Of a stretch of DNA of 64,000 bases, positions 24,867-63,941 are shown in pieces. The position numbers and the translations under genes were made by a program. The DNA lies in assembly GCA_043808095.1 (NCBI GenBank), contig JAZDFF010000001.1, positions 94,230 through 158,229 on the forward strand, written 5' to 3'. Position 1 is the first letter of the stretch. Every line of letters begins with the position of its first letter. The stretch comes from Candidatus Omnitrophota bacterium (GTDB lineage Bacteria > Omnitrophota > Gorgyraeia > JAZDFF01). The notes under the pieces are model-generated. The model was not told the DNA's origin. It was given only the letters and a program-made list of their open reading frames with translations, and did no database searches.

Positions 24867-24879
24867 GCACAAAGATTAA

Positions 24880-25000: not shown

Positions 25001-25023
25001 AATAAACCGAATAAAATTATAAA

Positions 25024-40240: not shown

Positions 40241-41111
40241 GGGAAAAATGGAGACAAAAAAAGACCGGTTATTCATAGTAATCTCGCTGCCGAAGCGAAT
40301 CACTTTTAAATTAGCCTCTTTGTTTATTTTATTTATCTTAATTATTATTAAACTGTATGATGTCTTTGCAAAGCCTAATCCGCAGGCAATGTCTAATGAG
40401 ATGTACCTTACTATAAGTATGATTCTTGTGATTTATCTGTGGATTGCTGAGAGCATCGATGTGCAGAAGTATCGCTTGGCTGAAAATGAACTGCTGAATG
40501 TCCAAAGGCGTATAAAAAATGAACATATAAATACCATTGCTTCATTGATTTTAGCCCAGGAAGCCAAAGACCCATATAACCGCGGTCATTCTATCAGGGT
40601 GACTCAATTTGCCATGCTTATGGGCAGGCGTTTAAGTTTATCGAGGGAAGAGTTAGAGGTATTGGAACGTGCAGCAATCTTGCATGATATCGGAAAAGTC
40701 GGTATAAGCGATACGCTCCTTAGCAAGGTAGAGAAGTTAACCAAAGAGGAGATGGATGAGATTAGAAGGCACGTGGTATTAAGCGATACCATACTAAAGC
40801 CCCTGCAATTTTTAAAAAATGAACGCGTACTGATTCGCCAACATCACGAGCACTATGATGGCATGGGTTATCCTGATAAATTAAAAGGCGAAGAGATTCT
40901 TCTTGGGGCGAGGATTTTGGCTGTCGCTGATTTTTACGATGCCGTCAGTTCTGACCGGCCATATCGTAATGCCCTTTCAAAGTTTGAGATTATCGGGGAA
41001 TTAAAGAAAAACAGGGGAAAACAATTCGACTCGAAATTAGCAGATATCCTGCTTGAGTTAATCGAGAGCGATGATGTCGGCCTAAGTCAGATTGTTGAGT
41101 CGGCAAGATAA
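40221..41111 (+). CDS. Membrane-anchored HD-GYP domain phosphodiesterase
   Basis: N-terminal TM segments; HD motif AILHDIGK and HHEHYDGMGYP; start may be internal MET at 40248. Confidence 0.8.
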   Translation: MPIKRDEGKMETKKDRLFIVISLPKRITFKLASLFILFILIIIKLYDVFAKPNPQAMSNEMYLTISMILVIYLWIAESIDVQKYRLAENELLNVQRRIKNEHINTIASLILAQEAKDPYNRGHSIRVTQFAMLMGRRLSLSREELEVLERAAILHDIGKVGISDTLLSKVEKLTKEEMDEIRRHVVLSDTILKPLQFLKNERVLIRQHHEHYDGMGYPDKLKGEEILLGARILAVADFYDAVSSDRPYRNALSKFEIIGELKKNRGKQFDSKLADILLELIESDDVGLSQIVESAR

Positions 41112-41705: not shown

Positions 41706-41779
41706 GGCGGCGTAGCTCAGCCTGGTAGAGCAAGCGGCTCATACCCGCTCGGCCAGTGGTTCAAATCCACTCGCCGTCA
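41706..41779 (+). tRNA. tRNA with CAT anticodon (elongator Met or Ile2)
   Basis: Cloverleaf GGCGGCG/CGCCGTC acceptor, anticodon loop CTCATAC, T-loop TTCAAAT; G1-C72 pair argues against initiator. Confidence 0.8.
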
Positions 41780-42002
41780 TTCTACTTCGTCAAAGTGTTT
41801 TCACCTTTGACTTCGTAGAAATATTAGGCGATGGTAGGTTCTGCGAAGCCCATACCATAGTTTTTATATTGAAGGGCGAAGCAGACCACTCGCCGTCACT
41901 CTATGATATTGCTCAGGGTGACAATCCTAAGCGACTGGTGACTAGTATTGTCGAATCAAGTCGAAGGGCGCCACCAGTGCCTGTAATTTAAAGGAGGTTT
42001 TT

Positions 42003-45936: not shown

Positions 45937-47199
45937 GTGTTGACAGAGGATTATATGAATGTAAGGATGGTTTCTGCCGGAGATTTAGAAGAGGTAAAAA
46001 GACAGATGCGCGCCATTGGAGTCGATAAATACGGCATTCAGATTATGGCGCCTAAGTCGTGCATGCACCTTGTAAAGATAGAAGGCCTCTCTAATATTGC
46101 CGCAAATGTATTAAAACAGGAGATGCTCTCTCTTGGCGGAGATGTGGCGGTTTCTCGGGGGTCCTTAACCGGGGCAACCAAGAAAACAGATTGCCTGGTA
46201 ATCGGAAACGATATCCAGGTTAACCGCCTTAACGAAAAACTACGCATGCAGCCTTTTAAATTAGGAGAATTAGCCTGCCAGATTAAGGATGTATTGCATA
46301 ATTACGGCCGCGATAAATTCGTTGTTAAGACACGAAGGTTCACTTTAGATTTAAAGAAGCGGCCTATGATTATGGGTATTGTCAATTTGACTGATGATTC
46401 CTTTAGTGGTGACGGACTATTAAATAAAATCAAAAATCAAAAATCAAAAATCAAAATTGTTAATGAAGCAATAAGATTTACAGAAAAGATGGTTGAAGAT
46501 GGAGCAGATATCATCGATATTGGAGGAGAGTCAACTCGTCCGGGAGCCCGGCCAGTTCCTTTAAAAGAAGAATTAGCCAGGATTATTCCGGTTATAAAAC
46601 TTTTGGTTAAGCGTATCAAGGTGCCTATATCCGTCGATACTTACAAACCCGAAGTAGCAAAGCAGGCCTTGGATGCAGGCGCGAGTATTGTAAATGATAT
46701 TATGGGTACGGATTTAGACAATCGTATTGCTAAATTAGTAGCCAGCTTTGACGCGGCGCTCATTATTATGCATATCAAGGGCAGGCCACGGACTATGCAG
46801 AATAACCCGAAATATAAATCCTTAATGGCCGAGATAATTTTTGGCCTTAAAGGTTCAATTGATAAAGCCCTTAAGCTGGGAGTGAACTCGTCTAATATTA
46901 TTATTGACCCGGGCATAGGTTTCGGAAAGACCTCAGGGCATAATCTTTTTATCCTAAAACATTTATCGGAATTAAAGAGCCTGGGTTATCCTATATTGGT
47001 CGGCCCGAGCAGAAAGTCATTTATCGGCAAGGTCTTGGGCGGTGTGCCTGCACACAATAGATTAATGGGTACAGCTGCAGCCTGCGCCTTGGCAGTAGCC
47101 AATGGGGCAAATATCCTGCGCGTCCATGATGTCAAAGAGGTCAAACAGGTTATAAAATTAACGCAAGCCATAAGAGGGGCAAAAAATGCAGCTGATTAA
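45937..47199 (+). CDS. folP: Dihydropteroate synthase with N-terminal extension domain
   Basis: Pterin-binding DHPS core (IMGIVNLTDDSFSGDG, GADIIDIGGESTRPG, DPGIGFGK); roughly 140-aa N-terminal extra domain. Confidence 0.85.
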   Translation: MLTEDYMNVRMVSAGDLEEVKRQMRAIGVDKYGIQIMAPKSCMHLVKIEGLSNIAANVLKQEMLSLGGDVAVSRGSLTGATKKTDCLVIGNDIQVNRLNEKLRMQPFKLGELACQIKDVLHNYGRDKFVVKTRRFTLDLKKRPMIMGIVNLTDDSFSGDGLLNKIKNQKSKIKIVNEAIRFTEKMVEDGADIIDIGGESTRPGARPVPLKEELARIIPVIKLLVKRIKVPISVDTYKPEVAKQALDAGASIVNDIMGTDLDNRIAKLVASFDAALIIMHIKGRPRTMQNNPKYKSLMAEIIFGLKGSIDKALKLGVNSSNIIIDPGIGFGKTSGHNLFILKHLSELKSLGYPILVGPSRKSFIGKVLGGVPAHNRLMGTAAACALAVANGANILRVHDVKEVKQVIKLTQAIRGAKNAAD

Positions 47200-47971
47200 T
47201 TTGGCGTTAATTGCCTGGAAACCCATTGTAGAAATTTCTATATTGTGGTTTATTTTTTATCGGATAATGCTCTTCTTTGAAGGCTCGCGCGCTTTTCAGG
47301 TCGTAAAAGGGATCAGCGTTTTAATTATTGCTTTTCTTGTCTTTCGAATCTTTGACCTGTATACCCTTAATTGGTTGCTCGCCAAACTCTTTGGTATTTG
47401 GTTAATCGGTGTTTTGATTATTTTTCAGCCGGAATTAAGACATGGCCTGGCCAGGCTTGGAGAAAGGCATTTATTAAGCAGTACTTACCGCCAGGAAAAT
47501 CTGGATATAGTGTTTAAAGAGATAGCCTCTGCCGCTATTACCTTATCCTACAAAAAAATCGGGGCTTTAATTGCCTTTGAGAGAGAATCGCGCCTTAAGA
47601 GTTTTGTTGAAAGCGGCGTGCTGTTAGATAGCAGGGTTTCGACTGAAATCATTGAGTCAATATTTATTACGACAAGCCCATTACACGACGGAGGAGTAAT
47701 TATTCAGTCTGGCAGGATCGTTGCGGCAAGTTGTCTTTTTCCGCTTTCTCATAAACCAGAATTGCCTTTGCAATATGGAATGCGGCACCGCGCGGCAATT
47801 GGCCTGACCGAGGAGACGGATGCTGCGGTAGTGATAGTTTCTGAAGAGACAGGACGCATCTCTTTGGTTTCTAACGGAGAGTTTACTAATATTACTGACA
47901 AAGAAGAGTTGGTTAAAAGGTTAAAGGCGCTTTTTAAAAAACAAAAAAGCAATGAAGACTCTATCCTCTAA
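47186..47971 (+). CDS. cdaA: Diadenylate cyclase CdaA (c-di-AMP synthase)
   Basis: 3 N-terminal TM helices plus DAC domain (HDGGVII, RHRAAIGLTEETDAAVVIVSEETG). Confidence 0.9.
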   Translation: MQLINLALIAWKPIVEISILWFIFYRIMLFFEGSRAFQVVKGISVLIIAFLVFRIFDLYTLNWLLAKLFGIWLIGVLIIFQPELRHGLARLGERHLLSSTYRQENLDIVFKEIASAAITLSYKKIGALIAFERESRLKSFVESGVLLDSRVSTEIIESIFITTSPLHDGGVIIQSGRIVAASCLFPLSHKPELPLQYGMRHRAAIGLTEETDAAVVIVSEETGRISLVSNGEFTNITDKEELVKRLKALFKKQKSNEDSIL

Positions 47972-50434: not shown

Positions 50435-50507
50435 GCCGACGTAGCTCAGTTGGCAGAGCAGCGGTTTTGTAAACCGCGGGTCGGAGGTTCGATTCCTCTC
50501 GTCGGCT
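50435..50507 (+). tRNA. tRNA-Thr(TGT)
   Basis: GCCGACG/CGTCGGC acceptor, anticodon stem GCGGT/ACCGC with loop TTTGTAA, T-loop TTCGATT. Confidence 0.85.
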
Positions 50508-50622
50508 CTTTTCCAAAATTGACTACGTCAATTTTGGAGTAGCGAGTAGAGAATATTTTATTCACTGACTACTATGTACTATTTACTGATTACTAAAGGG
50601 ATGATTTCTTATAGTTTAAAAC

Positions 50623-50982
50623 GGGCAGGTACCCAAGCGGTCAAAGGGGACAGACTGTTTAAAAGCAGCGCCCCGACGAAAGTCGTGGTGGAAAAGTAGG
50701 TGAATTCAGGGAAACCCTCTCGTAACTACGAAAGGTAATCCTGAGCCAATCCTCGCACAAAGCTGGCAGGCAGAAGGCCTGCTTGCTGAAGCTTTAGCGA
50801 AGGCAGGTGCAGAGACTAAGCGCCTACCACCTAAAACTGGATGAAGCCCAGTTTTATCCCAAGCGAAGTTAAGGGATAACTTCTCTGGTTAAGGTGATGA
50901 GATAGTCCAAGCCTTGAGGAAACTCAAGGGATACTTGAAATCTGTTGCACACGCTTCAGAGGTTCGAATCCTCTCCTGCCCA
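50623..50982 (+). tRNA. tRNA-Tyr(GTA) interrupted by a group I intron in the anticodon loop
   Basis: Exons GGGCAGGTACCCAAGCGGTCAAAGGGGACAGACTGT + AAATCTGTTGCACACGCTTCAGAGGTTCGAATCCTCTCCTGCCCA form a class-II Tyr cloverleaf (acceptor GGGCAGG/CCTGCCC, anticodon stem ACAGA/TCTGT, loop CTGT|AAA). Confidence 0.75.
50659..50937 (+). ncRNA. Group I intron (IC3-like, no ORF) within tRNA-Tyr
   Basis: 5' splice site after U with GCAG guide-sequence partner; terminal G; core elements AATCCTGAGCCAA, GGTGCAGAGACTAAGCG and GAGATAGTCC resemble cyanobacterial tRNA-Leu intron P3/P7 elements as recalled from memory. Confidence 0.7.
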
Positions 50983-51084
50983 TTCTACTTCGCTCAAGTG
51001 CTTTCGCCTTGGGCTTCGTAGAAATTATTGGGAAAGGAAGGTTCTGAGTAGCTGAAAGTGAAAACAATTTAGCGAAGGAGAATC

Positions 51085-51486: not shown

Positions 51487-51557
51487 GCGGGAGTAGTTCA
51501 GTGGTAGAACAATAGCCTTCCAAGCTATATACGCGGGTTCAATTCCCGTCTCCCGCT
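51487..51557 (+). tRNA. tRNA-Gly(TCC)
   Basis: GCGGGAG/CTCCCGC acceptor, anticodon loop CTTCCAA, T-loop TTCAATT; CCA follows. Confidence 0.85.
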
Positions 51558-51559
51558 CC

Positions 51560-51890
51560 AATAGTTTACACGGGTTTCCGCCACCCGTCATCTTTGATGG
51601 CGAGTGGCGAGATCTCGCCGAAGCTAAAAAAATGGAGTCCACGGCTTTACCCTCTTCGACTCGCGTCGAGCGAGGCGAGCAGCCGTGGTACCTGAAAAAC
51701 CCGCCTACGCTTCGCTTCGGCGAGGTCCGCTCGCCTCGCGGCGAAGCCGCGGGCCTTCAATACGTAATGGCGACATCTCGCCGTAGCGCTAATTGCACGC
51801 ATTCATCCCCAGGTTCACACCTGGGGTTTTCCCGCCAAAGGCGAGGCTCGCCAAAGGCGGCTGCGCGAAGGCGGATAAATATCTAGCTTC
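51560..51890 (+). repeat. GC-rich island with four GGCGAG-N(2-5)-CTCGCC hairpin palindromes
   Basis: Palindromes at 51607-51620 (GGCGAGATCTCGCC), 51719-51735, 51779-51792, 51840-51852; composition clearly more GC-rich than the surroundings; ORFs here are Arg-rich low-complexity and judged spurious. Confidence 0.55.
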
Positions 51891-51891
51891 G

Positions 51892-51920
51892 GCGGGCAAT
51901 TCCCGTTGCCCGCTTTTTTT
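51892..51920 (+). terminator. Intrinsic terminator candidate
   Basis: GCGGGCAA / TTGCCCGC 8-bp stem followed by a run of 7 T. Confidence 0.6.
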
Positions 51921-51927
51921 GTTTAAT

Positions 51928-52911
51928 ATGAATAAGATGTTACGACTTATCATTATTGCCGTTTTTGCTTTTTTAATCTTTAAGAGTTCAACCTTTGGTT
52001 GGAGGCTTTTTGTCAAAGCCAAACCAAAAACAAATGATGCAGATATTTTTTTAAGCCAGAGGTTAAAGCATCATGTCTTATCGCTTTCCGACTACATAGG
52101 AGAGCGCCACGTATTCACAAAATACGAGAATTTAGATAAAGCAGCTAACTACATTACTAGGACTTTCCAGGATCATGGTTATTCGGTCTCGGCTCACACC
52201 TATAAAGCCTATAGTAAAATCTCCCAAAATATAATTGCTACAAAGCTCACCGAAGACAATCCAAAGGAAATTATAGTTATCGGCGCGCATTATGATTCAG
52301 TGCTGGGTTCACCGGGTGCTGATGATAATGCCAGCGGTGTCGCCGTACTATTAGAGACGGCTAAATTCCTAAAAGATAGCGAGACTAAACAAACAATCAA
52401 ATTTATTGCTTTTGTTAATGAGGAACCGCCATTTTTCAAGAGTAAAGATATGGGAAGCTTTGCCTATTTGGAAGAATGTTTAAAAAATAAAGAAAGAATT
52501 AGTAGCGCCATTATCTTGGAGTCGGTTGGTTTTTATTCCCAAAGGCGTTATTCCCAGAGATACCCTCCTTTATTTGGAATATTCTATCCGGATCGGGCAA
52601 ACTTTATTGCCTTGGTGAGTAATTTTAAATCCCGGCATCTTTTAAAAGCCCTAAAGCAATCATTTTCCAAAAATTCAACTCTGAATTTAGAGACCATCTC
52701 AACTTTTGATTTTGTCCCGGGAGTAGATTTCTCTGATAATTGGAGTTTTTGGCAAAAGGGCATTCCGGCAATTATGATTACTGACACTGCCTTTTACCGT
52801 AACCCTTATTATCATACTGCCCAAGATACTGCCGAGAAATTAGATTATGATTTTATGACTCTACTCGCCAAAGATTTAAGTATTTCTATTTTGGAGTTAG
52901 CCAATAAGTGA
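51928..52911 (+). CDS. M28 family zinc aminopeptidase
   Basis: Signal anchor; VIGAHYDSV...ADDNASG...VNEEP metal-ligand pattern; start moved to ATG 51928 (ORF-track start lies inside the GC-rich island). Confidence 0.75.
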   Translation: MNKMLRLIIIAVFAFLIFKSSTFGWRLFVKAKPKTNDADIFLSQRLKHHVLSLSDYIGERHVFTKYENLDKAANYITRTFQDHGYSVSAHTYKAYSKISQNIIATKLTEDNPKEIIVIGAHYDSVLGSPGADDNASGVAVLLETAKFLKDSETKQTIKFIAFVNEEPPFFKSKDMGSFAYLEECLKNKERISSAIILESVGFYSQRRYSQRYPPLFGIFYPDRANFIALVSNFKSRHLLKALKQSFSKNSTLNLETISTFDFVPGVDFSDNWSFWQKGIPAIMITDTAFYRNPYYHTAQDTAEKLDYDFMTLLAKDLSISILELANK

Positions 52912-54188
52912 AAAATTTCCCAAAAAATTTCCTCTGGGGCGCAGCGACCTCAAGCCATCAGGTTGAAGGAGATAATTTTTATAATAACTGGTGGCGCTGG
53001 GAGAATTTTGAAAAGACCGTTGAGCGTTCCGGAAAGGCCTGCGACCATTATCGGCTTTTTGAACAAGACTTCGACCTTGCCCGAGAGCTCAACCACAATG
53101 CCCACCGGTTTTCCGTAGAATGGAGCAGGATTTATCCTAAGGCCGATGAGTTTAAAAGTGATGAAGTCGAGCACTATCTTAAGGTCGTCGCTGCTTTAAG
53201 AAAGAGAAACATTGAGCCCGTCGTAACCTTGCATCATTTCACCAATCCTCATTGGCTACTTGATTTCGGCGGCTGGGCTAATCCTAAGGCTGTGCGTTAT
53301 TTTGTTGAATATGTCGAGCATATTGTAAAGGCGCTTGGTGCGGATGTTAAGTATTGGGTTACTATTAACGAGCCGATGATTTATGTTTATTACTCTTTTA
53401 TCATTGGGATCTGGCCGCCGGGCGTAAAGTCGACAAGAGAAGCATTCAAGGTATTAAATAATCTTATTCTCGCCCATTCAAATGCATATAAAGTTATCCA
53501 CAGGATTTACGAAGAAAATAAATGGCCGCGTCCTTACGTAAGTATCGCCCAGAATATCCTGGCATTTACTCCCTGCAGAAACTTTTTTTTGGACAAAGAG
53601 GCAGCCTATCTGAGGGATCAGGTTTATAATCAGCTTCTGTTAAAAGTATTTACCACAGGACAAATGAAAATCCCGGGATTAATTTACGACCGGCTGTCTT
53701 TTGCCAAAGAGACACTTGATTTTATCGGACTAAATTACTATAGCCGCCATTTCGTCAGATTTGACCTTTTTAAACCTGGTGAATTATTCGGCAGGCAATG
53801 CTCACTGGATCATCACAAGGCAGGTCGTCTGAACGAGATGAATTCTGAGGTCTATCCCGAAGGCCTGTTGAAAGTTCTTCTAAGTTTAAAAAAATACAAC
53901 CTGCCTATAATTATTACGGAAAACGGCACTGCCGAGACTGATGATAATTTCCGCTGGCAGTTTATCAAAGGCCATCTAAAATATTTATCCCGGGCTATAA
54001 ACGCAGGCGTTGATGTAAGAGGTTATTTATATTGGTCATTATTGGATAATTTCGAATGGCACCATGGATTCAAGCCGCGTTTTGGTCTGACTGAGGTAGA
54101 TTATGCCACTCAAGAGAGAAAAATCAGGGAGAGCGCCAGAAAATTTGCCCAGGTATGTAAGAGTAATTCTATTGAAGAATTAACCTAA
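52908..54188 (+). CDS. Glycoside hydrolase family 1 beta-glucosidase
   Basis: FLWGAATSSHQVEG N-terminal signature, TINEP acid/base, IITENG nucleophile. Confidence 0.85.
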   Translation: MKNFPKNFLWGAATSSHQVEGDNFYNNWWRWENFEKTVERSGKACDHYRLFEQDFDLARELNHNAHRFSVEWSRIYPKADEFKSDEVEHYLKVVAALRKRNIEPVVTLHHFTNPHWLLDFGGWANPKAVRYFVEYVEHIVKALGADVKYWVTINEPMIYVYYSFIIGIWPPGVKSTREAFKVLNNLILAHSNAYKVIHRIYEENKWPRPYVSIAQNILAFTPCRNFFLDKEAAYLRDQVYNQLLLKVFTTGQMKIPGLIYDRLSFAKETLDFIGLNYYSRHFVRFDLFKPGELFGRQCSLDHHKAGRLNEMNSEVYPEGLLKVLLSLKKYNLPIIITENGTAETDDNFRWQFIKGHLKYLSRAINAGVDVRGYLYWSLLDNFEWHHGFKPRFGLTEVDYATQERKIRESARKFAQVCKSNSIEELT

Positions 54189-54209
54189 ATTATATACAAT
54201 ATAGAAAGG

Positions 54210-54983
54210 TTGAATAAAATGAGGACAAAAGAAACTTTTGAGAACGAATTAAAGCCGGTGCATATTGAGGCCTTTGACCTTGATGATGCCTGGTTTCAAT
54301 GCTTGAGCCAAATTCTTGAGAAGGGCCATGTCTATATAATCACTAAAGGCAGCTACGAGGGCCAAAGGCGTCTGGAATTCGATTTTGTGACTGTAAGGGT
54401 AAAAAACCCGGCGCATCAGATTATCCCTATAATCCCTGAGGGGATGAGTATCCCGGCCCCTACCGACATGGAATATATCCAGGGTTATCTTTCCTATCTT
54501 TTGACCGGCCAGAAAACCGACACTGAAGATTATACCTATGGCGAGAGGCTTGTCGAGCCGAAGGTAAGGATTTCCAGTGCGGATTCCGCAGATAAACTAT
54601 ATCATGAGATGCCTCTTGGCGTAAATCAGATTCAGGAGGTCATTAATATGTATAAGACTAAAGGCCATGGCACTAACCAGGCAACCATGGAGATAGGCAT
54701 GCCCTCAGATATAAAATTAGTTGATCCTCCGTGCCTGCGCATCATTGATACGCGTATCCGCTATGGAAAACTGCATTTCATTTTGTATTTTCGCTCCTGG
54801 GATCTTTGGGGCGGTTTTCCTTCCAATCTTGGTGGCTTAGAGCTTGTTAAACAATTCATGGCCGAGGAAATCGGTGTAGGGGATGGCGAGATCATTGCCG
54901 TGAGTAAAGGCCTGCATCTCTATGAATATGCCTGGGAGCTGGCCAAGATGCGCACTATGAGGGCCGATAAGGTTATAAAATAA
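54210..54983 (+). CDS. Thymidylate synthase-like protein (ThyA fold, divergent/methanogen-type)
   Basis: DPPCLRIID (candidate catalytic Cys), FRSWDLWGGFPSNLGGL, SKGLHLYEY resemble ThyA core motifs. Confidence 0.55.
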   Translation: MNKMRTKETFENELKPVHIEAFDLDDAWFQCLSQILEKGHVYIITKGSYEGQRRLEFDFVTVRVKNPAHQIIPIIPEGMSIPAPTDMEYIQGYLSYLLTGQKTDTEDYTYGERLVEPKVRISSADSADKLYHEMPLGVNQIQEVINMYKTKGHGTNQATMEIGMPSDIKLVDPPCLRIIDTRIRYGKLHFILYFRSWDLWGGFPSNLGGLELVKQFMAEEIGVGDGEIIAVSKGLHLYEYAWELAKMRTMRADKVIK

Positions 54984-55029
54984 ATCTTTTTATGGCGTAT
55001 GCAGACAGATGAGAAGCGCGGATGTTACA

Positions 55030-55160
55030 GATTAAATGCCTAATGACTAATGAATTCTTAAATGACTTAATGTCCAATGTCAAATTAAACCATTTCATTA
55101 GAAATTTAAAAATTAGGAATTTATTCGTCATTAGTCATTAAAAATTTGACATTAAATCAA
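55030..55160. repeat. Palindromic repeat, family F
   Basis: GAATTTATTCGTCATTAGTCATTAAAAATT matches 24963-24992. Confidence 0.75.
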
Positions 55161-55171
55161 TAAAATAATCT

Positions 55172-57187
55172 ATGAACTTCATGGATCTTTTTGACAAGAG
55201 GCTAATTATAAAACAAATCCCCCTGTTTTCTGCTTTAAAGCCCCGCGAGATAAACTTTATCCTGGATAGATCAGAATTTGTCGAATACAAAAAGTCCGAG
55301 ATTATTTATAAAGAAGGCGACCCCCCGGATGCATTTTACTGCGTAGTAATCGGCAGGGTCCAGCTTTTTACCAGGGACTCTTTGCAAGGAGAGACAATCT
55401 TAGAATATCTGCATCGCGGAAAATATTTCGGCATAATTTCTCTTTTGACCGATGAACCTCATTCCGTAACCGTACGTGCGCTTAATGATACGATATTGCT
55501 TCGTATAAAAAAAGATGATTTTGATTTTATCTTACATAATATTCCCCAGCTTGCCATTGATTTAAGCAGGATGCTTTCACGCCGGCTCAAGCGTAAAGAC
55601 ATCCACCAGAAGACCATCTTTGAGAGTACGATTGTTTCTATATTCAGTTCCCATGGCCAGGCCGAAAAAAACGCCTACAGCATAAACCTGGCCTTAAGCC
55701 TCAAAGAACAGACGCATAAATCCGTAATTTTCCTGGAGTTGTGTCCTCAGGACAAAACCCATAGCTGTCCGGCTAAGTTTGGGGCTTGTTCGGGGCATAA
55801 GACCTTAGACATATCCAAATTGTTTACAGACCTGGAGAAATTGAAAGAACTGATATTGAAAAATACCCTTGACGTGGATTTAATCTGCCTGCATTATCGG
55901 GAAGATCAGCCCGATAATTTAAAAAGGCTTCTGGATTTATTGAGCCTCTTGGTCAATGATTACCACTACATATTTTTAGACCTGCCGACAGCGATGGATG
56001 AATTTATTTTGAATATCCTAAGGCAGTCAGATTCGGTGCATATCTTGAGCGGGTCCGATGAAATAGAGTTAAAAAAGACACGCAGTCTTGTGGAAAGGCT
56101 GAAAACCGACTTTGGTATGCATATGAATAATATAAAAGTGATTATTAATGAATATAAACACTCCAAATTAACGCATGAGGAACAGTTAGAAATCCTGGAA
56201 AATAATATCTTTGCTACTTTGCCCAAGATAGAATTTGAAAGCGCCGACGATAAATTGGTTTTGACTAACAAGGAAAGCGAATACGCCAAGGCCGTAAGAA
56301 GGATTAGCCGCCACGAAGGGGATTGTTTAGTCGGCCTTGCTTTGGGCGTGGGCGTTGCTTATGGCTTTTGCCACATTGGGGTATTAAAGGTAATCGAAGA
56401 GGAAAACATCCCTGTTGATATTATCTCAGGCTCAAGCGTCGGGGCCCTTATTGCTGCCTTATGGGCAGTAGGTAAAAGTTCCTCCGAGATACTAAAGATT
56501 ACCGAAGATTTTAAAGAGCCGAAATTTTTCTGGAGACTGCTGGATTGGACTGTGCCTTTACAGGGTTTTATCAAAGGCAATAAACTTTACGCCTTGTTAA
56601 AAAAATATTTAGGCAATAAAACCTTTCAGGATGTGCGTATTCCCTTAAAGATTGTGGCTTCTGACGTAAAGATGAAAGAGCCGATTGTTTTTGAAAAGGG
56701 CAGCCTCATTGATGCGGTGATGGCCTCTTGTACCATGCCCGGGGTATTTAATCCTTTTAAATTAAGAGAAGGCATACTCTTTGACGGCGGGGTAATCAAT
56801 CCTTTGCCTACCGAGCCGCTTATTAATATGGGCGCAAAAAAGATTATTGCTATTAATGTTACCCCTTCCCGGGAAGATATCGTAAGGCAATACGCCAAGA
56901 TTAAGGAAGGCCAGAAAAAGGTAATAGCTAAACACTCCATTTTTAATATAAAGGCATTTTTCAAGGATTTGTTTAGGACCAATATCCTGGATTATATATT
57001 TAGCAGTATTGAGATACTTCAATCTGAATTGGCGCAGAAAGAGGCACAGTTTGCGGATATTGTTTTACATCCTGATACCTCAGGGATGTACTGGCTGGAA
57101 TTAGGCAGGGCCGAGGAATTTGCGCAAAGAGGGGAAGAAGAGGCGCGGCGCAACTTAGAACGGATAAAACAACTCCTGTATGAGTAG
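55172..57187 (+). CDS. Three-domain protein: cNMP-binding domain, degenerate ParA/receiver-like middle domain, patatin-like phospholipase
   Basis: N-terminal CAP-family cNMP-binding fold (FGIISLLTDEPHSVTVRAL); C-terminal patatin motifs GLALGVGVAYG, GSSVG, DGG. Confidence 0.8.
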   Translation: MNFMDLFDKRLIIKQIPLFSALKPREINFILDRSEFVEYKKSEIIYKEGDPPDAFYCVVIGRVQLFTRDSLQGETILEYLHRGKYFGIISLLTDEPHSVTVRALNDTILLRIKKDDFDFILHNIPQLAIDLSRMLSRRLKRKDIHQKTIFESTIVSIFSSHGQAEKNAYSINLALSLKEQTHKSVIFLELCPQDKTHSCPAKFGACSGHKTLDISKLFTDLEKLKELILKNTLDVDLICLHYREDQPDNLKRLLDLLSLLVNDYHYIFLDLPTAMDEFILNILRQSDSVHILSGSDEIELKKTRSLVERLKTDFGMHMNNIKVIINEYKHSKLTHEEQLEILENNIFATLPKIEFESADDKLVLTNKESEYAKAVRRISRHEGDCLVGLALGVGVAYGFCHIGVLKVIEEENIPVDIISGSSVGALIAALWAVGKSSSEILKITEDFKEPKFFWRLLDWTVPLQGFIKGNKLYALLKKYLGNKTFQDVRIPLKIVASDVKMKEPIVFEKGSLIDAVMASCTMPGVFNPFKLREGILFDGGVINPLPTEPLINMGAKKIIAINVTPSREDIVRQYAKIKEGQKKVIAKHSIFNIKAFFKDLFRTNILDYIFSSIEILQSELAQKEAQFADIVLHPDTSGMYWLELGRAEEFAQRGEEEARRNLERIKQLLYE

Positions 57188-57383
57188 TGCTAAGTAGAGA
57201 GCAGAAAGTAGTCCTTCGATAATTTCTCAGGACAAACAATGCCAAAATCCCTGCACTGCTTCCCGTTAAACAATTGATGCGTTTTAGGAGAAAATCTCCT
57301 TAATTAGGTAGTTCGGACATAAATTTTATACCATTTCTATTGCATTTATTTAACAAATATGTTAACTAAAACGCATTCTGGCC

Positions 57384-57413
57384 TTGACAAAGCAGGCTGA
57401 AGTATGTTATAGT
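57384..57413 (+). promoter_or_regulatory. Sigma-70-like promoter candidate upstream of abiEi
   Basis: TTGACA, 18-bp spacer, TATAGT. Confidence 0.4.
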
Positions 57414-57455
57414 TGTTTCTGTAAATAATCATTTTTGATTATATGAGGAAACATA

Positions 57456-58100
57456 ATGAACTATAACGATTTTCGTAAAAAATTCCAATCTCTGCCTATC
57501 TTTACCAGCAAAGACGTAGTTAGGCTGCAGCCGGACAAACAAGCTGTGCGCAATCAGATTAATCGCTGGCAGGCAAAGGGGCTGCTTATTCAATTAAAGC
57601 GGGGGTTATATGCGTTTGATGAAATCGACCGCAAGGTCGACTTAAACCTTCATTTTATTGCTAATAATCTTTATGCGCCTTCATATATCAGCTTAGAGTC
57701 GGCATTAAATTTTTATGGTTTAATCCCGGAGAAGGCAGTTGATTTAACCTCTGTAACTACTAAAAAAACCGCCATTTTTAAGAATAAATTAGGAGTTTTT
57801 ATCTATCAGCACATTAAGCCAAATGCCCTTAGAGGATTTAGGCAGGTTAAAGATAATTCTGGTTATACCTTTTTTATTGCTGAGCCTGAAAAAGCGATTG
57901 TGGATTTTTTTTATTTGAACTTAAGCAGATTTAAGCCCAAAGACAGGGACATTTTTGAAGTCTCATACCGTTTTCAGAACATTGAAGGACTGAAAGTTTT
58001 AAAGATCTTAGAGTATGCCAATTTGTTTAACAACCTTAAACTTTTGAAGGTCTGCCAGAATTTCTGCAGATTCATCAAGAAAGAGGCAAAAAATGATTGA
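57456..58100 (+). CDS. abiEi: AbiEi-like antitoxin/transcriptional regulator
   Basis: N-terminal wHTH with QINRWQAKGLLIQLKRGLYAF; overlaps the following nucleotidyltransferase gene by 8 nt. Confidence 0.7.
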   Translation: MNYNDFRKKFQSLPIFTSKDVVRLQPDKQAVRNQINRWQAKGLLIQLKRGLYAFDEIDRKVDLNLHFIANNLYAPSYISLESALNFYGLIPEKAVDLTSVTTKKTAIFKNKLGVFIYQHIKPNALRGFRQVKDNSGYTFFIAEPEKAIVDFFYLNLSRFKPKDRDIFEVSYRFQNIEGLKVLKILEYANLFNNLKLLKVCQNFCRFIKKEAKND

Positions 58101-58893
58101 GGTCATCAAGCAACAATTTGTAGAAAATATGTCGACCGGAGAAAAGATTAACAGGGTGCGAGAGTTCTTGCAGACCTTGGTTTTAAAGATTATTTACGAC
58201 AAGGATTATTTCAATAATCTTGCCTTTGTTGGAGGCACGGCCTTAAGGTTTTTATACAGCCTAAGGCGTTTCTCCGAAGACCTTGATTTTTCTCTGGTAA
58301 ATAAGGAAGGTTATAATTTCAGGAAAATTAATGCGGAGGTTATTGAAGGATTTGGTTCTTTTGGCTTTGAAATAGAAAGCAGACCCAAAGATGAAAAGAA
58401 TGTTCACAGCGCAATGCTGAGATTTAAGGGATTGTTAAAGGCGCTTGGGCTTTCTGATATGGATGAGCAGAAACTTTCTGTTAAACTTGAGATAGATACC
58501 AATCCGCCAAAGGGTTGGAATGTTCAAACTAGCGTTGTTAATAAGACCTATCTTTTGAATATCGTCCATTTTGATTTATCTTCTTCGTTTGCCACAAAAT
58601 TACATGCCTGTTTTTACCGCAAATTTGTGAAGGGCCGCGATTTTTATGACCTCATCTGGTATCTTGGCAAGAAAATCGTCCCCAATTTTGTATTATTAAA
58701 CAATGCGATCGCGCAAACCCAGGGGAAAAATCCCGGTATAGATGTAGATAATTTTAAGGAGTTTATTTTAGAAAACCTGAAGAAGATCGATTTTGATAAG
58801 GCAAAAGCAGATGTTGAAAGGTTCTTAGAGGATAAAAACGAACTTAAGCTTTTTGATTTTGCGGTAATTAGGGGCGCAATTGAATTACTCTAG
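58093..58893 (+). CDS. abiEii: AbiEii/AbiGii-family nucleotidyltransferase toxin
   Basis: GGTALRFLYSLRRFSEDLDFS NTase motif (GG...DxD); 266 aa. Confidence 0.75.
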   Translation: MIEVIKQQFVENMSTGEKINRVREFLQTLVLKIIYDKDYFNNLAFVGGTALRFLYSLRRFSEDLDFSLVNKEGYNFRKINAEVIEGFGSFGFEIESRPKDEKNVHSAMLRFKGLLKALGLSDMDEQKLSVKLEIDTNPPKGWNVQTSVVNKTYLLNIVHFDLSSSFATKLHACFYRKFVKGRDFYDLIWYLGKKIVPNFVLLNNAIAQTQGKNPGIDVDNFKEFILENLKKIDFDKAKADVERFLEDKNELKLFDFAVIRGAIELL

Positions 58894-58959
58894 CCCGGCC
58901 CTTTTGACAATATATGACAACTTTATGGCAATGTTTGACTATCCGTTAAATGCGCCAAC

Positions 58960-59140
58960 TCGAAAACTCGTCAACTCGTTGAACTCGAAATTCGTCATTC
59001 CATTAGTCATTCGAAATTAGGAATTTTCGATTCTAGATTAGCGCAGATATTTATCTGTGCTCATCTTGTAGCATTTTCCGCCATAATGCTTTGGCGGACC
59101 CGCCAATCTTTGTGGCGGGCATCTGTGCTAATCTGCGACT
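58960..59140. repeat. Palindromic repeat cluster (families F, B, A)
   Basis: GGCGGACCCGCCAATCTTTGTGGCGGG identical to 22813-22839; CGTCATTCC...CATTAGTCATTCG family F. Confidence 0.8.
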
Positions 59141-59449
59141 CTAGGCTTTGCGTAGATTAGACGGCAAGATTGCCAACGCTTTCCTGTATTTGGTGATGGT
59201 ACGGCGGGCAAGTTTTATACCTTGTTTAGCAAAATAATCTACAATTTCAATATCGCTAAGCGGCTTTGATTTATCTTCTTCTGCGATAAGCATGCGGATG
59301 CACTTTTTTATCTCATTGCCGGATCCAAATAATAAACTTTTTAGAAAAGGCCGCTTATAAAATAATTGCCAGGACATTAAACGGAATATTCTTCGTTGAA
59401 AACTCGCCTGCTTTTGGTGAACATTATCAAGAAAGCGCTTCCTTGACAA
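59141..59449 (-). pseudogene. rpoN: Sigma-54 (RpoN) C-terminal fragment
   Basis: 102 aa ending ...KPLSDIEIVDYFAKQGIKLARRTITKYRKAL (RpoN box ARRTVAKYRE-like); no N-terminal activator-interacting or core-binding domains. Confidence 0.6.
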
Positions 59450-59471
59450 TTAGAATAAAATATGGTATACT
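59443..59471 (+). promoter_or_regulatory. Near-consensus sigma-70 promoter candidate facing the polysaccharide export locus
   Basis: TTGACA, 17-bp spacer, TGGTATACT (extended -10). Confidence 0.5.
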
Positions 59472-59668
59472 CAACAACACTTGTAAAAAGCTTTTTAAAA
59501 GTGTATTCACTATAAATAATTTTATTAGTTATTATAATCTTAGTTTTGTTTCATTTTTATAAGATAAAAAATTTTTTTTATCTTGATAAAACTATTTAGT
59601 TGTGATAGATTAATATCAAACCAAGTCTTGGGATAAATTTAAAAAATTGAAGATTATGGAGGGCGGAT

Positions 59669-60847
59669 ATGGTTAAAAAAATATTGTCAGCGGCCGTTTT
59701 TATTTTTTCATTTTCAATTTTTACAAATCTTGCCTATAGTCAAGAGAGCTGGATACATCCCTTCTTAAAGATCCACGAAGAATATAATGACAATATCTAC
59801 TTGACCGATAGCGACAAAGAGGGGGATTGGATAACCACTGTCAGTCCTGGTTTTGAAATAAAGCCGCACCTGAATAGTGAACATGAGCTTACTTTAGGCT
59901 ATCTCGCTGATTTTGAGTATTTTGCCGATCATGCTGGAGAGAATAGCGAAAATCATAAAACAGATGCGGATCTTAAGCTTACCTTTAATGATTGGCATAT
60001 CAATTTCAACAATATGTTTCATTATTATGTGGATCAGCTCCGCATAGAAGACACAAACAGAATTCCCAGGACTCAGGATCATGCCAGCACAAAAGTCACC
60101 CGTACGTCGACCAACATGGATTTGTCCTTGGGATATACCTACAGGCTTGAAAGATATCGTACCGATGAGGCTATTGGCAGTTATTTCGGGCAGGCCTTGA
60201 ATTATCGCGACCTTGAAAGGGATGAGCACGAAGGAGAACTGGAAGCAGCCCTTAAATTCTGGCCAAAGACATCGCTTCTTTTATCGGGTGTTCTCGGCAC
60301 GCTGGAACATCGCACAGGCAAAAAGCCTGATTCAGATTTTTTTGAAATTTTAACGGGATTGCGCGGAGAACCCACAAAAAAATGCACCGTAGAAGCAAAG
60401 ATTGGTTATCGCGGTTCTGACTATGATGATCCTGCAGATGACTTTGAGGGTTTAGTTTTTCGGGGTAATTTAACCGAAAATTTTACCGAAAGAGATAGCC
60501 TGAGACTTGATTTTGTAAGGACAGTTGAAGATACAAACTATCAAAACAACGCTTTTTATGAGAATTCTTTTATAAATGCCCGGTATAGGCATGGGTTTAC
60601 TGACAGAATTGCCGGATATATAGATGCTTCTTATCAAGTCAATTATTATCCTACCGAAACAACCGAAGGTAGCGAAACCCTAAACCGAGATGATAATTTT
60701 TGGTCAGCAGGGGCTAGTCTATCTTACGACCTGACAAAATGGATTGCCTGTGAAATCAAATATTTATTCAGGACAAGAGATTCCAATATCTCAGGCTACG
60801 ATTATAACAACAACCGCATAAGCATTGGTCTAATTGGTAGTTTCTAA
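59669..60847 (+). CDS. Outer-membrane beta-barrel protein
   Basis: Signal peptide, alternating amphipathic strands, C-terminal aromatic ...IGLIGSF. Confidence 0.6.
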   Translation: MVKKILSAAVFIFSFSIFTNLAYSQESWIHPFLKIHEEYNDNIYLTDSDKEGDWITTVSPGFEIKPHLNSEHELTLGYLADFEYFADHAGENSENHKTDADLKLTFNDWHINFNNMFHYYVDQLRIEDTNRIPRTQDHASTKVTRTSTNMDLSLGYTYRLERYRTDEAIGSYFGQALNYRDLERDEHEGELEAALKFWPKTSLLLSGVLGTLEHRTGKKPDSDFFEILTGLRGEPTKKCTVEAKIGYRGSDYDDPADDFEGLVFRGNLTENFTERDSLRLDFVRTVEDTNYQNNAFYENSFINARYRHGFTDRIAGYIDASYQVNYYPTETTEGSETLNRDDNFWSAGASLSYDLTKWIACEIKYLFRTRDSNISGYDYNNNRISIGLIGSF

Positions 60848-63290: not shown

Positions 63291-63680
63291 TGAGGCCCGA
63301 ACTTACGGATCCCAGCGAAATGTTGGTAGAACGTAAGTTTGCTGGCCGAATTTACCCCCACACCAATTATCTATACAACTGAAAGGAAAGGATAAAGGCA
63401 ATGTTTTATGTTTATTTATTAAAAAGTAATAAAGATAGCAATCTTTACATAGGTCTCACACATAACTTAAAACGAAGGGTTCAACAGCATAATAATGGCT
63501 TAGTTGTTTCTACAAAATTAAGAAGACCATTTGAAGTAGTATATTGCGAAGGGTATAAATCAGAGAAAGACGCAAGACTCAGAGAAAAGAACCTTAAATT
63601 AAGATCTCGTGCATTTGCTCAATTAAAGAAACGGATTACAGCAAGTTTATCATAATAATTGGTGTGGGGGTTTAATTCGC
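63291..63680. mobile_element. Palindromic element carrying a GIY-YIG nuclease gene between perfect 17-bp inverted repeats
   Basis: IR-L ACCCCCACACCAATTAT (63354-63370) and IR-R ATAATTGGTGTGGGGGT (63655-63671); left arm TGAGGCC..ACTTACGGA..ACGTAAGT..GGCCGAA and right tail TTAATTCG shared with the cargo-free copy at 16521-16690. Confidence 0.7.
63401..63655 (+). CDS. Small GIY-YIG nuclease (YhbQ/UPF0213-like)
   Basis: MFYVYLLKSNKDSNLYIGLTHNLKRRVQQHNNG with GIY-YIG-type N-terminal motif; 84 aa. Confidence 0.8.
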   Translation: MFYVYLLKSNKDSNLYIGLTHNLKRRVQQHNNGLVVSTKLRRPFEVVYCEGYKSEKDARLREKNLKLRSRAFAQLKKRITASLS

Positions 63681-63752: not shown

Positions 63753-63941
63753 ATGGCAGAAAAAAAGTTACTTTTAACCAAAGAAGCTGCGAGTCTCTTA
63801 AGAATAAGCGAGGAGTACCTGCGCTGCCTTATAAGACAGAAAAAGATTTCCGCTTATAAAGAAGGGCGGCGGGGAGGATATAGGATACCCTTGCAGGAGA
63901 TAGATAATTATATCTCCCGGGGCATAAAGAATAATCCTTGA
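63753..63941 (+). CDS. Excisionase-family HTH DNA-binding protein
   Basis: LLLTKEAASLLRISEEYLRCLIRQKKISAYKEGRRGGYRIPLQEIDNYI fits the HTH_17/Xis pattern. Confidence 0.65.
   Translation: MAEKKLLLTKEAASLLRISEEYLRCLIRQKKISAYKEGRRGGYRIPLQEIDNYISRGIKNNP

Follow-up and report, generated by a model that had tools for sequence, protein, structure and literature searches.

The 671-aa protein encoded at 55172..57187 on the forward strand (NCBI MFH1201401.1, 'patatin-like phospholipase family protein', from a Candidatus Omnitrophota MAG) is best read as a vertically inherited, cytoplasmic and allosterically regulated lipid acyl-hydrolase that is core to Omnitrophota and does not serve in defence. We assign this reading, which is predicted from sequence and gene context, a probability of about 0.72. 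The AbiE genes that follow the lipase gene are an independent insertion, seen beside it in this genome only. Throughout, the window denotes the whole 64-kb stretch of DNA analysed.

The protein has three folded domains, namely a CAP-type cNMP-binding fold (residues 8-145, 55193..55606), a ParA/MinD-fold middle domain (residues 148-384, 55613..56323) and a patatin lipase module of the RssA/PlpD type (residues 386-669, 56327..57178), all on the forward strand. Profile matches, motifs and folds thereby bear out the architecture that the original prediction had proposed (CAP-type, ParA-like, patatin), and its three open reading frames likewise lie at 55172-57187, 57456-58100 and 58093-58893, the last two overlapping by 8 nt; start, end and length of the lipase frame are unchanged. 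The Patatin profile (PF01734) matches residues 389-551 over its whole length with 112.9 bits (cut-off 27.7), and the C-terminal module adopts the patatin alpha/beta fold. The Ser-Asp dyad is intact: the nucleophile motif GSSVG occupies residues 420-424 (Ser422 codon at nt 56435-56437) and DGG residues 538-540 (Asp538 codon at nt 56783-56785), with S422 and D538 invariant in all 44 aligned family members. The glycine-rich box reads GVGVAYG (392-398, pattern G-x-G-x-x-x-G) and has Tyr397 at the Arg/Lys position, where members of the Omnitrophota clade show Tyr, Phe or Leu in the alignment. In phospholipases such as cPLA2 and patatin the Arg of this box contacts the lipid phosphate. With the RssA equivalog model the score is 102.7 bits, short of the cut-off of 272. 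An AF2 model of the protein has a pLDDT of 74 and a pTM of 0.70, with low confidence around residues 450-468 and 498-542, D538 included.

The best structural match to the patatin module is PlpD which, like ExoU and VipD, belongs to the many bacterial patatins that are offensive, and some Omnitrophota have been proposed to be host-dependent or predatory (PMC12419801). The lipase might thus be an offensive enzyme of a predatory or epibiotic lifestyle, delivered to or acting on host or prey membranes. We consider this very improbable: neither a signal peptide nor a transmembrane segment was found in the 671-aa protein, whose sole hydrophobic peak is the patatin beta1/glycine-rich strand, and it has no recognisable secretion or translocation domain. 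Furthermore, sensor domains at the N-terminus typically go with regulation in the cytoplasm, and the gene shares an operon with a cytoplasmic GH1 enzyme and adjoins beta-oxidation genes.

The N-terminal domain matches cNMP_binding (PF00027) at residues 37-121 with 78.3 bits (cut-off 27.5) and has the beta-roll fold. Its phosphate-binding cassette, FGIISLLTDEPHSVT (residues 86-100, nt 55427-55471), is non-canonical. The canonical form is F-G-E-...-R-[ST]-A, in which the Glu contacts the ribose 2'-OH and the Arg the cyclic phosphate; alignment of FGIISLLTDEPHSVT with the cassette of PKG, FGERALLYDEPRSAT, places Ile88 at the Glu and His97 at the Arg. Across the family the Arg position is occupied by His in 34 of 44 members and by Arg in six of 44, and the Glu position is Ile in the Omnitrophota clade, while the relatives from Desulfobacteraceae retain the canonical FGE...R cassette along with the Arg of the glycine-rich box. 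In PKA the cassette Arg neutralises the phosphate of cAMP, and in trypanosome PKA-R its loss accompanies a switch to nucleoside ligands (PMC10959531). Because the cassette lacks the cNMP-contacting Arg and, in the Omnitrophota clade, also the Glu, gating of the lipase by cyclic nucleotides, as the 'nucleotide-gated' effector of the original prediction would imply, appears doubtful.

The middle domain has a ParA/MinD fold. The window copy scores 25.7 bits against AAA_31/CbiA (gathering threshold 27) and is matched by the ParA-like phrog_164 (2.8e-7), and many orthologs carry precomputed matches to PF01656 or PF13614. The suspicion that this region might be a linker common to NTE-type lipases falls away, as it is a genuine ParA/MinD fold that is conserved throughout the bacterial lipase family. 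Its P-loop reads SSHGQAEKN (residues 159-167, nt 55646-55672), with AEKN encoded by GCC GAA AAA AAC, and differs by G165E, T167N and the absence of the signature Lys. An intact deviant Walker A (xKGGxxGK[ST]) is thus wanting in this copy, as had been claimed, but the claim does not extend to the family, where 27 of 28 orthologs show S-x4-GKT or S-x4-GK[TS], the signature Lys being absent there too. Other clades have GSG[GS]ST or a degenerate loop and have lost the Lys altogether. A Walker-B-like hhhhDLP motif (D270) is kept. Given AEKN here and GSG[GS]ST or degenerate loops in other clades, the domain is probably a pseudo-ATPase in many family members.

More than 120 full-length orthologs of 59-70% identity have the same architecture, and roughly 100 full-length representatives of 50%-identity clusters extend the family down to 26% identity. 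The three-domain form occurs in Omnitrophota and in MAGs labelled Planctomycetia, Verrucomicrobiia and Desulfobacteraceae. In the closest clade, seven contigs share the order MFS, PG_binding_1, GH1, lipase, DUF3568-like and MazG-like, followed in most of them by SNF and the CDP-alcohol phosphatidyltransferase CDP-OH_P_transf and in two by a cardiolipin-synthase-like PLDc_2 gene. The GH1 glycoside hydrolase (52908..54188, forward strand, 426 aa; PF00232, 1.3e-90) has the NEP and TENG catalytic motifs in its translation and was found to lack a hydrophobic N-terminus. It lies directly upstream of the lipase in seven of seven long ortholog contigs and at locus L014, with a gap of -14 to +16 nt in orthologous loci. 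Only in the genome studied here does a thymidylate-synthase-like gene (54210..54983, forward strand; PF00303, 2.6e-10; phrog_160, 1.5e-15) lie between the two; it is missing at the junction in all seven ortholog loci, has the locally highest GC3 (0.508) and scores 101.7 bits against TIGR03283, under the cut-off of 174.55. Among distant relatives, whose neighbours were called with a simple greedy ORF picker, an ACAD9/VLCAD-like acyl-CoA dehydrogenase occupies position -1 in six loci, and FadB-like genes (eight loci), thiolase (four) and SDR (five) are also found nearby. The window itself is core chromosome, with the dcw cluster, gatCAB, secDF, acs genes, ftsH and others. Taken as part of the main reading, the lipase gene is probably inherited vertically and is a core gene in Omnitrophota as well as in some lineages neighbouring them. 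The lipase region nevertheless tends to neighbour variable islands, since restriction-modification or AbiEii genes lie ~3-5 kb downstream in three ortholog loci.

These neighbours also bear on a closer alternative, in which the protein would maintain phospholipid homeostasis by deacylating bulk membrane phospholipids or lysophospholipids and thereby controlling the make-up of the membrane, as PNPLA6/NTE and PNPLA7 do, with real tuning by cAMP or cGMP at the cNMP-binding domain (CNB). Such a role would accord with the CNB-then-patatin order common to NTE/SWS, with the CDP-OH_P_transf and PLDc_2 genes a few positions downstream, and with those Desulfobacteraceae members in which both the FGE...R cassette and the Arg of the glycine-rich box persist; JGI, too, labels orthologs 'NTE family protein', a name that is a generic orthology label. 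We nonetheless regard it as unlikely, though not negligible, considering that in the Omnitrophota clade the cassette has exchanged Arg for His and Glu for Ile, the glycine-rich box has Tyr, Phe or Leu for Arg, and the tightest genomic associations are with GH1 and beta-oxidation genes, not with genes for phospholipids. This alternative overlaps with the regulated acyl-hydrolase that we favour and differs from it in substrate and ligand only.

The original prediction had left open whether the protein is a housekeeping lipase or an orphan effector of anti-phage signalling, and had proposed profile searches and a look for cyclases to decide. The searches with Pfam and PADLOC recovered PF00027, PF01734, AbiEi and AbiEii. 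PADLOC matches on the lipase each span one domain only and fall far under curated family cut-offs: CBASS_lipase (NF041079) reaches 28.8 bits against 200, and DS2_1_antiphage 37.4 against 400. The remark that no cyclase is adjacent holds true: a DAC (c-di-AMP synthase) domain immediately behind folP, at 47186-47971, is the window's sole nucleotide cyclase. Beyond adjacency, a search covering 64 kb of this genome found no class III (Guanylate_cyc-type) cyclase, the lipase having GH1 and metabolic genes as neighbours, and no CD-NTase or SMODS domain; the latter two were likewise missing among the recurrent or Pfam-annotated neighbours of 31 related loci. A CBASS patatin effector (CapV/CapE) was therefore rejected on the score of 28.8 against 200 and for want of a CD-NTase operon, and a Pycsar effector for want of an adjacent pyrimidine (class III-like) cyclase.

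An orphan abortive-infection effector would have to bind, through its CNB, a phage-induced cyclic nucleotide from a cyclase encoded elsewhere and degrade the membrane with its patatin module, much as effectors of Pycsar or CBASS do, the AbiE neighbour being part of a small defence island. Against this stand the missing cyclase and CD-NTase in the window and in recurrent neighbourhoods, the cassette without its cNMP-contacting Arg and the single-domain PADLOC matches. The fixed syntenic housekeeping block with its full-length orthologs of 59-70% identity is, moreover, the opposite of patchy, island-borne defence genes, and the AbiE adjacency recurs neither on the lipase side (0 of 32 lipase loci) nor on the AbiE side (0 of 2, counting the nearest AbiE pairs that lie on long contigs). 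We consider an orphan effector highly improbable. It is the housekeeping half of the original alternative that the conserved, non-defence synteny of the orthologs and the absence of AbiE from all 32 loci uphold, in line with the context that the prediction itself had named as its counter-test, and the lipase probably belongs to no defence system.

The downstream pair is of the AbiE type, as had been predicted. AbiEi (57456..58100, forward strand, 214 aa), the antitoxin or transcriptional regulator, matches the PADLOC AbiEi model at residues 1-204 (2.9e-56), with sub-threshold matches to Pfam AbiEi_4 (21.9 bits, cut-off 25) and NF047376 (56, cut-off 150). AbiEii (58093..58893, forward strand, 266 aa), the nucleotidyltransferase toxin, matches PF08843 (3.6e-23, 83.2 bits, cut-off 22.5) and PADLOC AbiEii (8.6e-70) and carries the nucleotidyltransferase motif GGTAL...EDLD; its cognate AbiEi lies directly upstream in a bicistronic arrangement, the two genes sharing 58093-58100. 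AbiEii has 6,867 homologs, the closest 78% identical. The GC content of abiEi (0.364) is about 2 SD below the gene mean (0.420 +/- 0.023). Upstream lies a candidate promoter with inverted repeat (57384..57467, forward strand), TTGACA-18-TATAGT with an extended -10 TG, which matches 11 of 12 consensus positions and is one of three joint-best 11/12 matches in 52800-59700. It is overlapped by the 17-nt inverted repeat I17, whose arms (57406-57422 and 57451-57467) span the abiEi start codon; because AbiEi autoregulation is known, this repeat is possibly an autoregulatory operator. By its sequence features, i.e. its own candidate promoter, inverted repeat and lower GC, the cassette appears autonomous, and AbiEi and AbiEii are predicted to act as a separate, self-contained type IV toxin-antitoxin or abortive-infection unit.

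Repeat clusters had also been described as bounding the locus. These sequences do exist but are not specific to it, being copies of dispersed intergenic repeats, of which the window holds ~20 other families. One copy (55030..55160) lies just 5' of the lipase start codon and harbours an inverted repeat with arms at 55034-55053 and 55128-55147. Its homology to the gatC-gatA spacer (24877-25002; D1/D8) is 75-89% identity, with 55039-55155 corresponding to 24897-25002. Further copies lie 3' of abiEii (58940..59135), where 58988-59034 belongs to family D1 and 59053-59135 repeats 29993-30075 in inverted orientation (90%). They are followed on the reverse strand by a 102-aa sigma-54 ORF (59141..59449) with the DNA-binding domain only (PF04552, profile positions 101-159 of 160). 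A search upstream of it found no N-terminal rpoN sequence, and the ORF is likely a rearrangement scar or remnant.

For the lipase, sequence and gene context lead us to the following inferences on its substrate, its ligand and the function of its middle domain. The patatin module would release fatty acids from a cellular lipid, possibly a glycolipid or some other lipid that is not phosphorylated, as the glycine-rich box without its phosphate-binding Arg and the pairing with GH1 suggest, and the products could feed beta-oxidation or membrane remodelling. The CAP-fold domain would sense a small molecule, possibly other than a canonical 3',5'-cNMP given His in place of the cassette Arg. Between sensor and lipase, the ParA/MinD-fold domain may act as a dimerisation or scaffolding switch, which could depend on nucleotides in GKT orthologs and would probably be nucleotide-independent in the AEKN copy and in clades without the Lys. 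More speculatively, and with the odds rather against it, the His-cassette CNB, ParA-like and patatin combination might stand as prototype for an allosterically switched class of lipases, so far undescribed, in the Omnitrophota core. There, a MinD/ParA-type dimerisation module would link a non-cNMP sensor (of, for example, a nucleoside or lipid-derived metabolite) to lipolysis feeding GH1-linked glycolipid turnover and beta-oxidation, the module depending on ATP in some clades and being a pseudo-ATPase in the rest. If true, bacteria would have their own counterpart of the regulated lipolysis that NTE or ATGL carries out.

Among known systems, the AbiE pair falls within a very large family as an ordinary example and differs in nothing notable from other AbiE type IV toxin-antitoxin systems, with which it shares the 8-nt overlap, the N-terminal wHTH of AbiEi, the nucleotidyltransferase GG...DxD of AbiEii and a promoter with an inverted repeat that suits autoregulation. 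The lipase, by contrast, departs from each of its counterparts. Neither a CNB nor a ParA-like domain is present in stand-alone bacterial patatins of the RssA/YchK/PlpD type, PlpD being a secreted type Vd autotransporter passenger. CapV and CapE of CBASS lack a CNB and lie next to a CD-NTase, and Pycsar effectors have a pyrimidine cyclase beside them; the lipase has neither of these partners, and its genomic context is conserved housekeeping synteny. ParA, MinD, FlhG, FleN and TadZ are free ATPases, whereas here the fold is an internal lipase domain that lacks the signature Lys found in deviant Walker A motifs (KGGxxGK[ST]). In mycobacteria, CNB-esterase fusions (Rv2565) offer a bacterial precedent for a CNB joined to an NTE/patatin-type esterase. 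These fusions are not known to have a ParA/MinD-fold domain. The domain description of Rv2565 reportedly goes back to the classification of McCue et al. from 2000. Rv2565 appears in a list as an esterase that takes part in phosphatidylcholine metabolism (PMC10865251). Finally, NTE/PNPLA6/Swiss-cheese and PNPLA7 resemble the lipase in a CAP-type CNB N-terminal to a patatin Ser-Asp esterase and in a housekeeping role in lipid deacylation, predicted for the lipase, with ligand and role of the CNB uncertain in both; in fly NTE/SWS the CNB sites are required for phospholipase function (PMC12710771). NTE is, however, a eukaryotic ER protein that is anchored in the membrane at its N-terminus, has three CNB sites and lacks a ParA/MinD fold, and the combination of transmembrane anchor, multiple CNB and NEST esterase domain that defines NTE/PNPLA6 is not found in the 671-aa lipase, which instead joins one His-cassette CNB, an inserted ParA-like domain and a bacterial patatin of the RssA/PlpD type.

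The 671-aa lipase (55172-57187, forward strand) combines a cyclic-nucleotide-binding domain (CNB, residues 8-145), a middle domain of ParA/MinD fold (MID, 148-384) and a patatin domain (PAT, 386-669), and is followed by the AbiE pair, abiEi (57456-58100, 214 aa) and abiEii (58093-58893, 266 aa), which share 8 nt, exactly as in the original prediction. NCBI lists the identical sequence as MFH1201401.1, from a Candidatus Omnitrophota MAG (159,674-bp contig), and the upstream GH1 gene (52908-54188), AbiEi and AbiEii match MFH1201399.1, MFH1201402.1 and MFH1201403.1 on the same contig. Pfam recognizes cNMP_binding at residues 37-121 (4.5e-22), Patatin at 389-551 (2.9e-32) and, just below threshold, AAA_31 in the MID (residues 153-309; 25.7 bits against a cut-off of 27). 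The MID had also been called receiver-like, a reading that we rejected since there were no receiver matches. Neither a signal peptide nor a transmembrane segment was found in the lipase or in GH1. The AF2 model of the lipase is weak at residues ~450-468 and 498-542.

Within the patatin domain, S422 and D538 are invariant (44 of 44 family sequences). The Gly-rich box is devoid of the usual Arg/Lys, with Tyr397 in the window copy and Tyr, Phe, Leu or His in other Omnitrophota; the Arg is kept in the members from Verrucomicrobiia and Desulfobacteraceae. When the CNB cassette is aligned to that of PKG ('FGERALLYDEPRSAT' in PKG versus 'FGIISLLTDEPHSVT' in the lipase), the ribose-contacting Glu is replaced by Ile and the phosphate-contacting Arg by His. 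His97 is invariant in 28 orthologs and found in 34 of the 44 sequences of the wider family, and the canonical E...R cassette occurs in only a few members, Desulfobacteraceae among them. In PKA the cassette Arg neutralises the phosphate of cAMP, and in trypanosome PKA-R its replacement accompanies a switch to nucleoside ligands (PMC10959531). Given this precedent and the loss of both Glu and Arg, canonical cNMP gating of the lipase appears doubtful.

The ParA-like domain displays the motif S-x4-GK[TS] in 27 of 28 orthologs, together with Asp189 and an hhhhDLP motif. In the window copy the P-loop (residues 159-167, nt 55646-55672) reads AEKN, encoded by GCC GAA AAA AAC with a run of seven A, which agrees, for this copy, with the earlier statement that the Walker A is not intact. 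The underlying substitutions, G165E and T167N, are found in the window copy alone among the 28 aligned orthologs, and could represent either true decay of the nucleotide site or an artefact of MAG consensus or polishing. In a clade linked to acyl-CoA dehydrogenase the P-loop is GSG[GS]ST, devoid of Lys, and in other clades it is degenerate. Retention of the ParA fold while the nucleotide site decays repeatedly points to a role as a scaffold or in dimerisation.

A word-indexed homolog search retrieved more than 120 full-length proteins of 657-699 aa with 59-70% identity to the lipase, all with cNMP_binding and Patatin and often with CbiA or AAA_31 as well; where source names are given, these are 'patatin-like phospholipase family protein' or 'NTE family protein' from Omnitrophota. 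An exhaustive search of 50%-identity cluster representatives yielded about 100 full-length, single-stretch relatives with identities down to 26%. According to per-domain HMMs run on species-representative genomes, the order CNB-MID-PAT is present at 29 loci, from Omnitrophota and from MAGs labelled Planctomycetia, Verrucomicrobiia and Desulfobacteraceae. Five Omnitrophota loci have MID-PAT but no CNB, Chloroflexota and Bacillota have CNB-linker-PAT, which lacks the ParA-like domain, and an RssA-like patatin standing alone occurs in many phyla. A pattern scan of contigs reached only relatives of 39% identity or less, the closest orthologs carrying CHIGVLKVIEE, which the pattern does not match. 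In a word-indexed search with the MID alone, all matches were truncated fragments of the lipase family, and no other architecture was seen.

Gene order was compared among seven long contigs of different sample origin (116-647 kb), whose orthologs are 61-64% identical. All seven share a block consisting of hydrogenase/Mrp, MFS, PG_binding_1, GH1, the lipase, a ~150-aa DUF3568-like gene and a ~103-aa MazG-like gene, and most of them carry, farther downstream, an SNF transporter, a DUF3568 gene and a CDP-alcohol phosphatidyltransferase, with a ~500-aa PLDc_2 gene in two. The distance from the GH1 stop to the lipase start is -14 to +16 nt in the ortholog contigs, i.e. the genes abut or overlap, which is the signature of a tight operon. 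We set aside a reading of the downstream PLDc_2 genes as defence nucleases in view of their length (~500 aa) and the CDP-OH_P_transf neighbour; they look more like cardiolipin synthases. Around three-domain relatives of 31-39% identity, genes of beta-oxidation recur as neighbours, as called with a simple ORF picker: an ACAD9/VLCAD-like acyl-CoA dehydrogenase directly upstream (6 loci) and, nearby, a FadB-like protein with ECH and 3HCDH (8 loci), a thiolase (4 loci) and a short-chain dehydrogenase (SDR; 5 loci). No cyclase or defence gene was found among the recurrent neighbour clusters of the lipase relatives. Two Verrucomicrobiia loci have an M28-family peptidase directly upstream of the three-domain lipase (L019, 7089-7892; L020, 7077-7832), and in the window an M28 peptidase (51793-52911) overlaps GH1 by 4 nt, two genes upstream of the lipase; this peptidase may be a second recurrent partner.

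The window locus is rearranged in comparison with these relatives. GH1 and the lipase are 983 nt apart, with a ThyA-like gene and a repeat element between them, the DUF3568-like gene is absent from the window, and the MazG-like gene (52% identity) is located 33 kb off at 22411-22710. The ThyA-like gene (54210-54983, forward strand; Pfam 2.6e-10, phrog_160 1.5e-15, archaeal-type TIGR03283 101.7 bits against a cut-off of 174.55) stands between GH1 and the lipase in the window genome only, and its GC3 of 0.508 is the local maximum; the gene may have been inserted in this lineage alone, or may encode a modified-base enzyme. Just past the AbiE pair lies a 102-aa sigma-54 ORF (59141-59449, reverse strand) that comprises only the C-terminal DNA-binding domain with the RpoN box (profile positions 101-159 of 160). 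No rpoN sequence was found upstream of it, a stretch of 49% identity is present in L022, another lipase locus, and the ORF is either a truncated remnant that marks a rearrangement or a stand-alone mini-protein.

Repeat clusters had been proposed to bound the locus. The sequences are real: 55039-55155 is 75-89% identical to the gatC-gatA spacer (24897-25002), and 59053-59135 is an inverted copy of 29993-30075 (90%). They do not mark a boundary, being dispersed intergenic copies accompanied by about 20 further repeat families across the window. The genome abounds in such intergenic repeats, which are 40-150 nt long and fall into several families. Some contain inverted repeats and show heptamer periodicity, and many are found immediately 5' of a start codon, even within operons (gatC-gatA). 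Examples in intergenic spacers are 24877-25002, 55030-55160, 58940-59135 and 29993-30075, as well as the pairs 941-1010/22180-22249, 11875-12070/51390-51468 and 24245-24310/48289-48354. The repeat pattern GTCATTNNNNCATT gave zero matches, and alignment describes the repeats better. That they might be ends of a mobile element was rejected, since unrelated spacers contain the same families.

The AbiE pair itself is well recognized (AbiEi, PADLOC 2.9e-56; AbiEii, Pfam 3.6e-23 and PADLOC 8.6e-70) and is an unremarkable representative of a very large family. Four lines of evidence indicate that it is unlinked to the lipase. First, tblastn with AbiEi and AbiEii gave no match in 32 lipase loci. Second, Pfam annotation revealed defence genes near two relatives, an AbiEii ~4.7 kb downstream of the lipase in L003 and, in L087, a restriction-modification system at ~3.6 kb. 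Both are located past the conserved block, a position that suggests a variable region close by rather than a functional pairing. Third, neither the nearest AbiE homolog (78% identity, contig L090) nor that on L091, a 219-kb Omnitrophota contig, has a lipase beside it, their contexts being unrelated. Finally, the cassette has a candidate promoter of its own (57384-57413; 11 of 12 positions, extended -10), one of three joint-best sigma-70-like matches in the region and overlapped by a 17-nt inverted repeat across the abiEi start codon, and its GC content (0.364-0.373) is about 2 SD under the gene mean of 0.420 +/- 0.023. A few kb past the conserved lipase block, some ortholog contigs have variable genes: L003 harbours an HTH_36 gene, PLDc_2 and an AbiEi-like/AbiEii pair (11717-15624), L087 an HTH_36 gene and a BsaWI-type restriction-modification system (12602-16013) and L085 a PLDc_2 gene (13361-14875), which suggests an integration hotspot nearby.

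The remainder of the window, with ~40 further genes in a Pfam survey, is ordinary core chromosome: the dcw cluster, his and trp genes, secDF, mfd, surA, pdxA, ksgA, gatAB (gatC read from sequence), tsaD, Wood-Ljungdahl acs genes, tilS, ftsH and folP. Neither a class III cyclase nor a CD-NTase was found in the 64 kb, and the only nucleotide cyclase is a DAC (DisA_N) diadenylate cyclase (47186-47971, forward strand) directly after folP; being 7 kb upstream of the lipase, it leaves intact the earlier remark that no cyclase is adjacent. We rejected it as the cognate cyclase because it stands in the usual housekeeping folP-cdaA arrangement and because CNB domains are not known to act as c-di-AMP receptors. 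With the stand-alone HD_5/HD-domain protein upstream of it (40221-41111, forward strand) it probably forms a housekeeping pair for synthesis and degradation of c-di-AMP or a related nucleotide.

Some further elements of the window deserve mention. A full-length group I intron (50593-50929, forward strand; Rfam RF00028, 86.6 bits) lies between tRNA-Thr (50435-50508) and tRNA-Gly (51487-51560), with flanks (~50623-50660 and 50940-50985) resembling the halves of an intron-split class II tRNA, for which ARAGORN made no call. The putative 3' half contains T-arm and acceptor stem ('cagaggttcgaatcctctcctgccca'), and 50957-51052, in the 3' flank, matches the 3' end of tRNA-Met with its flank (41754-41849) at 75% identity. 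The gene at 31933-32442 (forward strand) joins a bactofilin domain to a C-terminal DNA-binding HTH_17 of excisionase type, an unusual pairing. The window end carries a small GIY-YIG-like ORF (63401-63655) and an excisionase-like HTH ORF (63753-63941), both on the forward strand (phrog_6401, 1.3e-08; phrog_66, 9e-06) and flanked by a 44-nt inverted repeat (63327-63370/63655-63698); a mobile element may have its edge here.

The original prediction had weighed a defence-type, nucleotide-gated effector against a housekeeping regulated lipase. With AbiE at 0 of 32 lipase loci and a synteny that is not of defence type, the former finds no support, and the conserved metabolic context of the orthologs favours the latter; we put the probability of a housekeeping or metabolic regulated lipase unrelated to AbiE at roughly 70%. 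Judged by its sequence, the lipase is a conserved, cytoplasmic patatin hydrolase, predicted to be catalytically competent, that carries a CAP-fold sensor and a ParA-fold module in the same chain. In one clade its genomic coupling is to GH1, with genes of lipid synthesis close by; in others it is to genes of beta-oxidation. In the mechanism that we propose, a ligand would bind the CAP-fold domain, the signal would pass via the ParA-like module, probably by dimerisation, and the lipase would be switched, the freed fatty acids entering beta-oxidation or membrane remodelling. The substrate may be a glycolipid or another non-phosphorylated lipid, as hinted by the absence of Arg from the Gly-rich box and by the GH1 partner; in these specific ideas on substrate and ligand we place much lower confidence than in the housekeeping reading.

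If the latter is right, adjacency to a defence cassette is no evidence for a function in defence, comparative synteny having reversed the inference here. Omnitrophota, a poorly understood and mostly uncultured phylum, would hold a near-universal regulated lipase, whose ParA/MinD-fold domain between sensor and catalytic modules would be unusual and would offer a testable entry to the lipid metabolism of the phylum. Its conserved Arg-to-His change in the cassette would put a bacterial candidate among the few CNB domains with a possible ligand switch, such as that of trypanosome PKA-R. Specialists will find no major surprise in this, as CNB-patatin fusions and degenerate ParA-like domains are already known and AbiE is ordinary.

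Among known systems, CapV, CapE and the Pycsar effectors resemble the lipase at the level of the fold only: it fails the cut-offs of their curated HMMs and is not accompanied by their cyclase partners. Its patatin module is of RssA/PlpD type, under the RssA equivalog cut-off. Closest in working is NTE/PNPLA6, which likewise combines CNB and patatin, acts in lipid homeostasis and has an uncertain CNB ligand; however, the lipase falls outside that family in having only one CNB domain, an additional domain and no membrane anchor. No description of a CNB-ParA-patatin architecture was found in the literature searched. We regard it as an uncharacterised variant of the known regulated patatin lipases.
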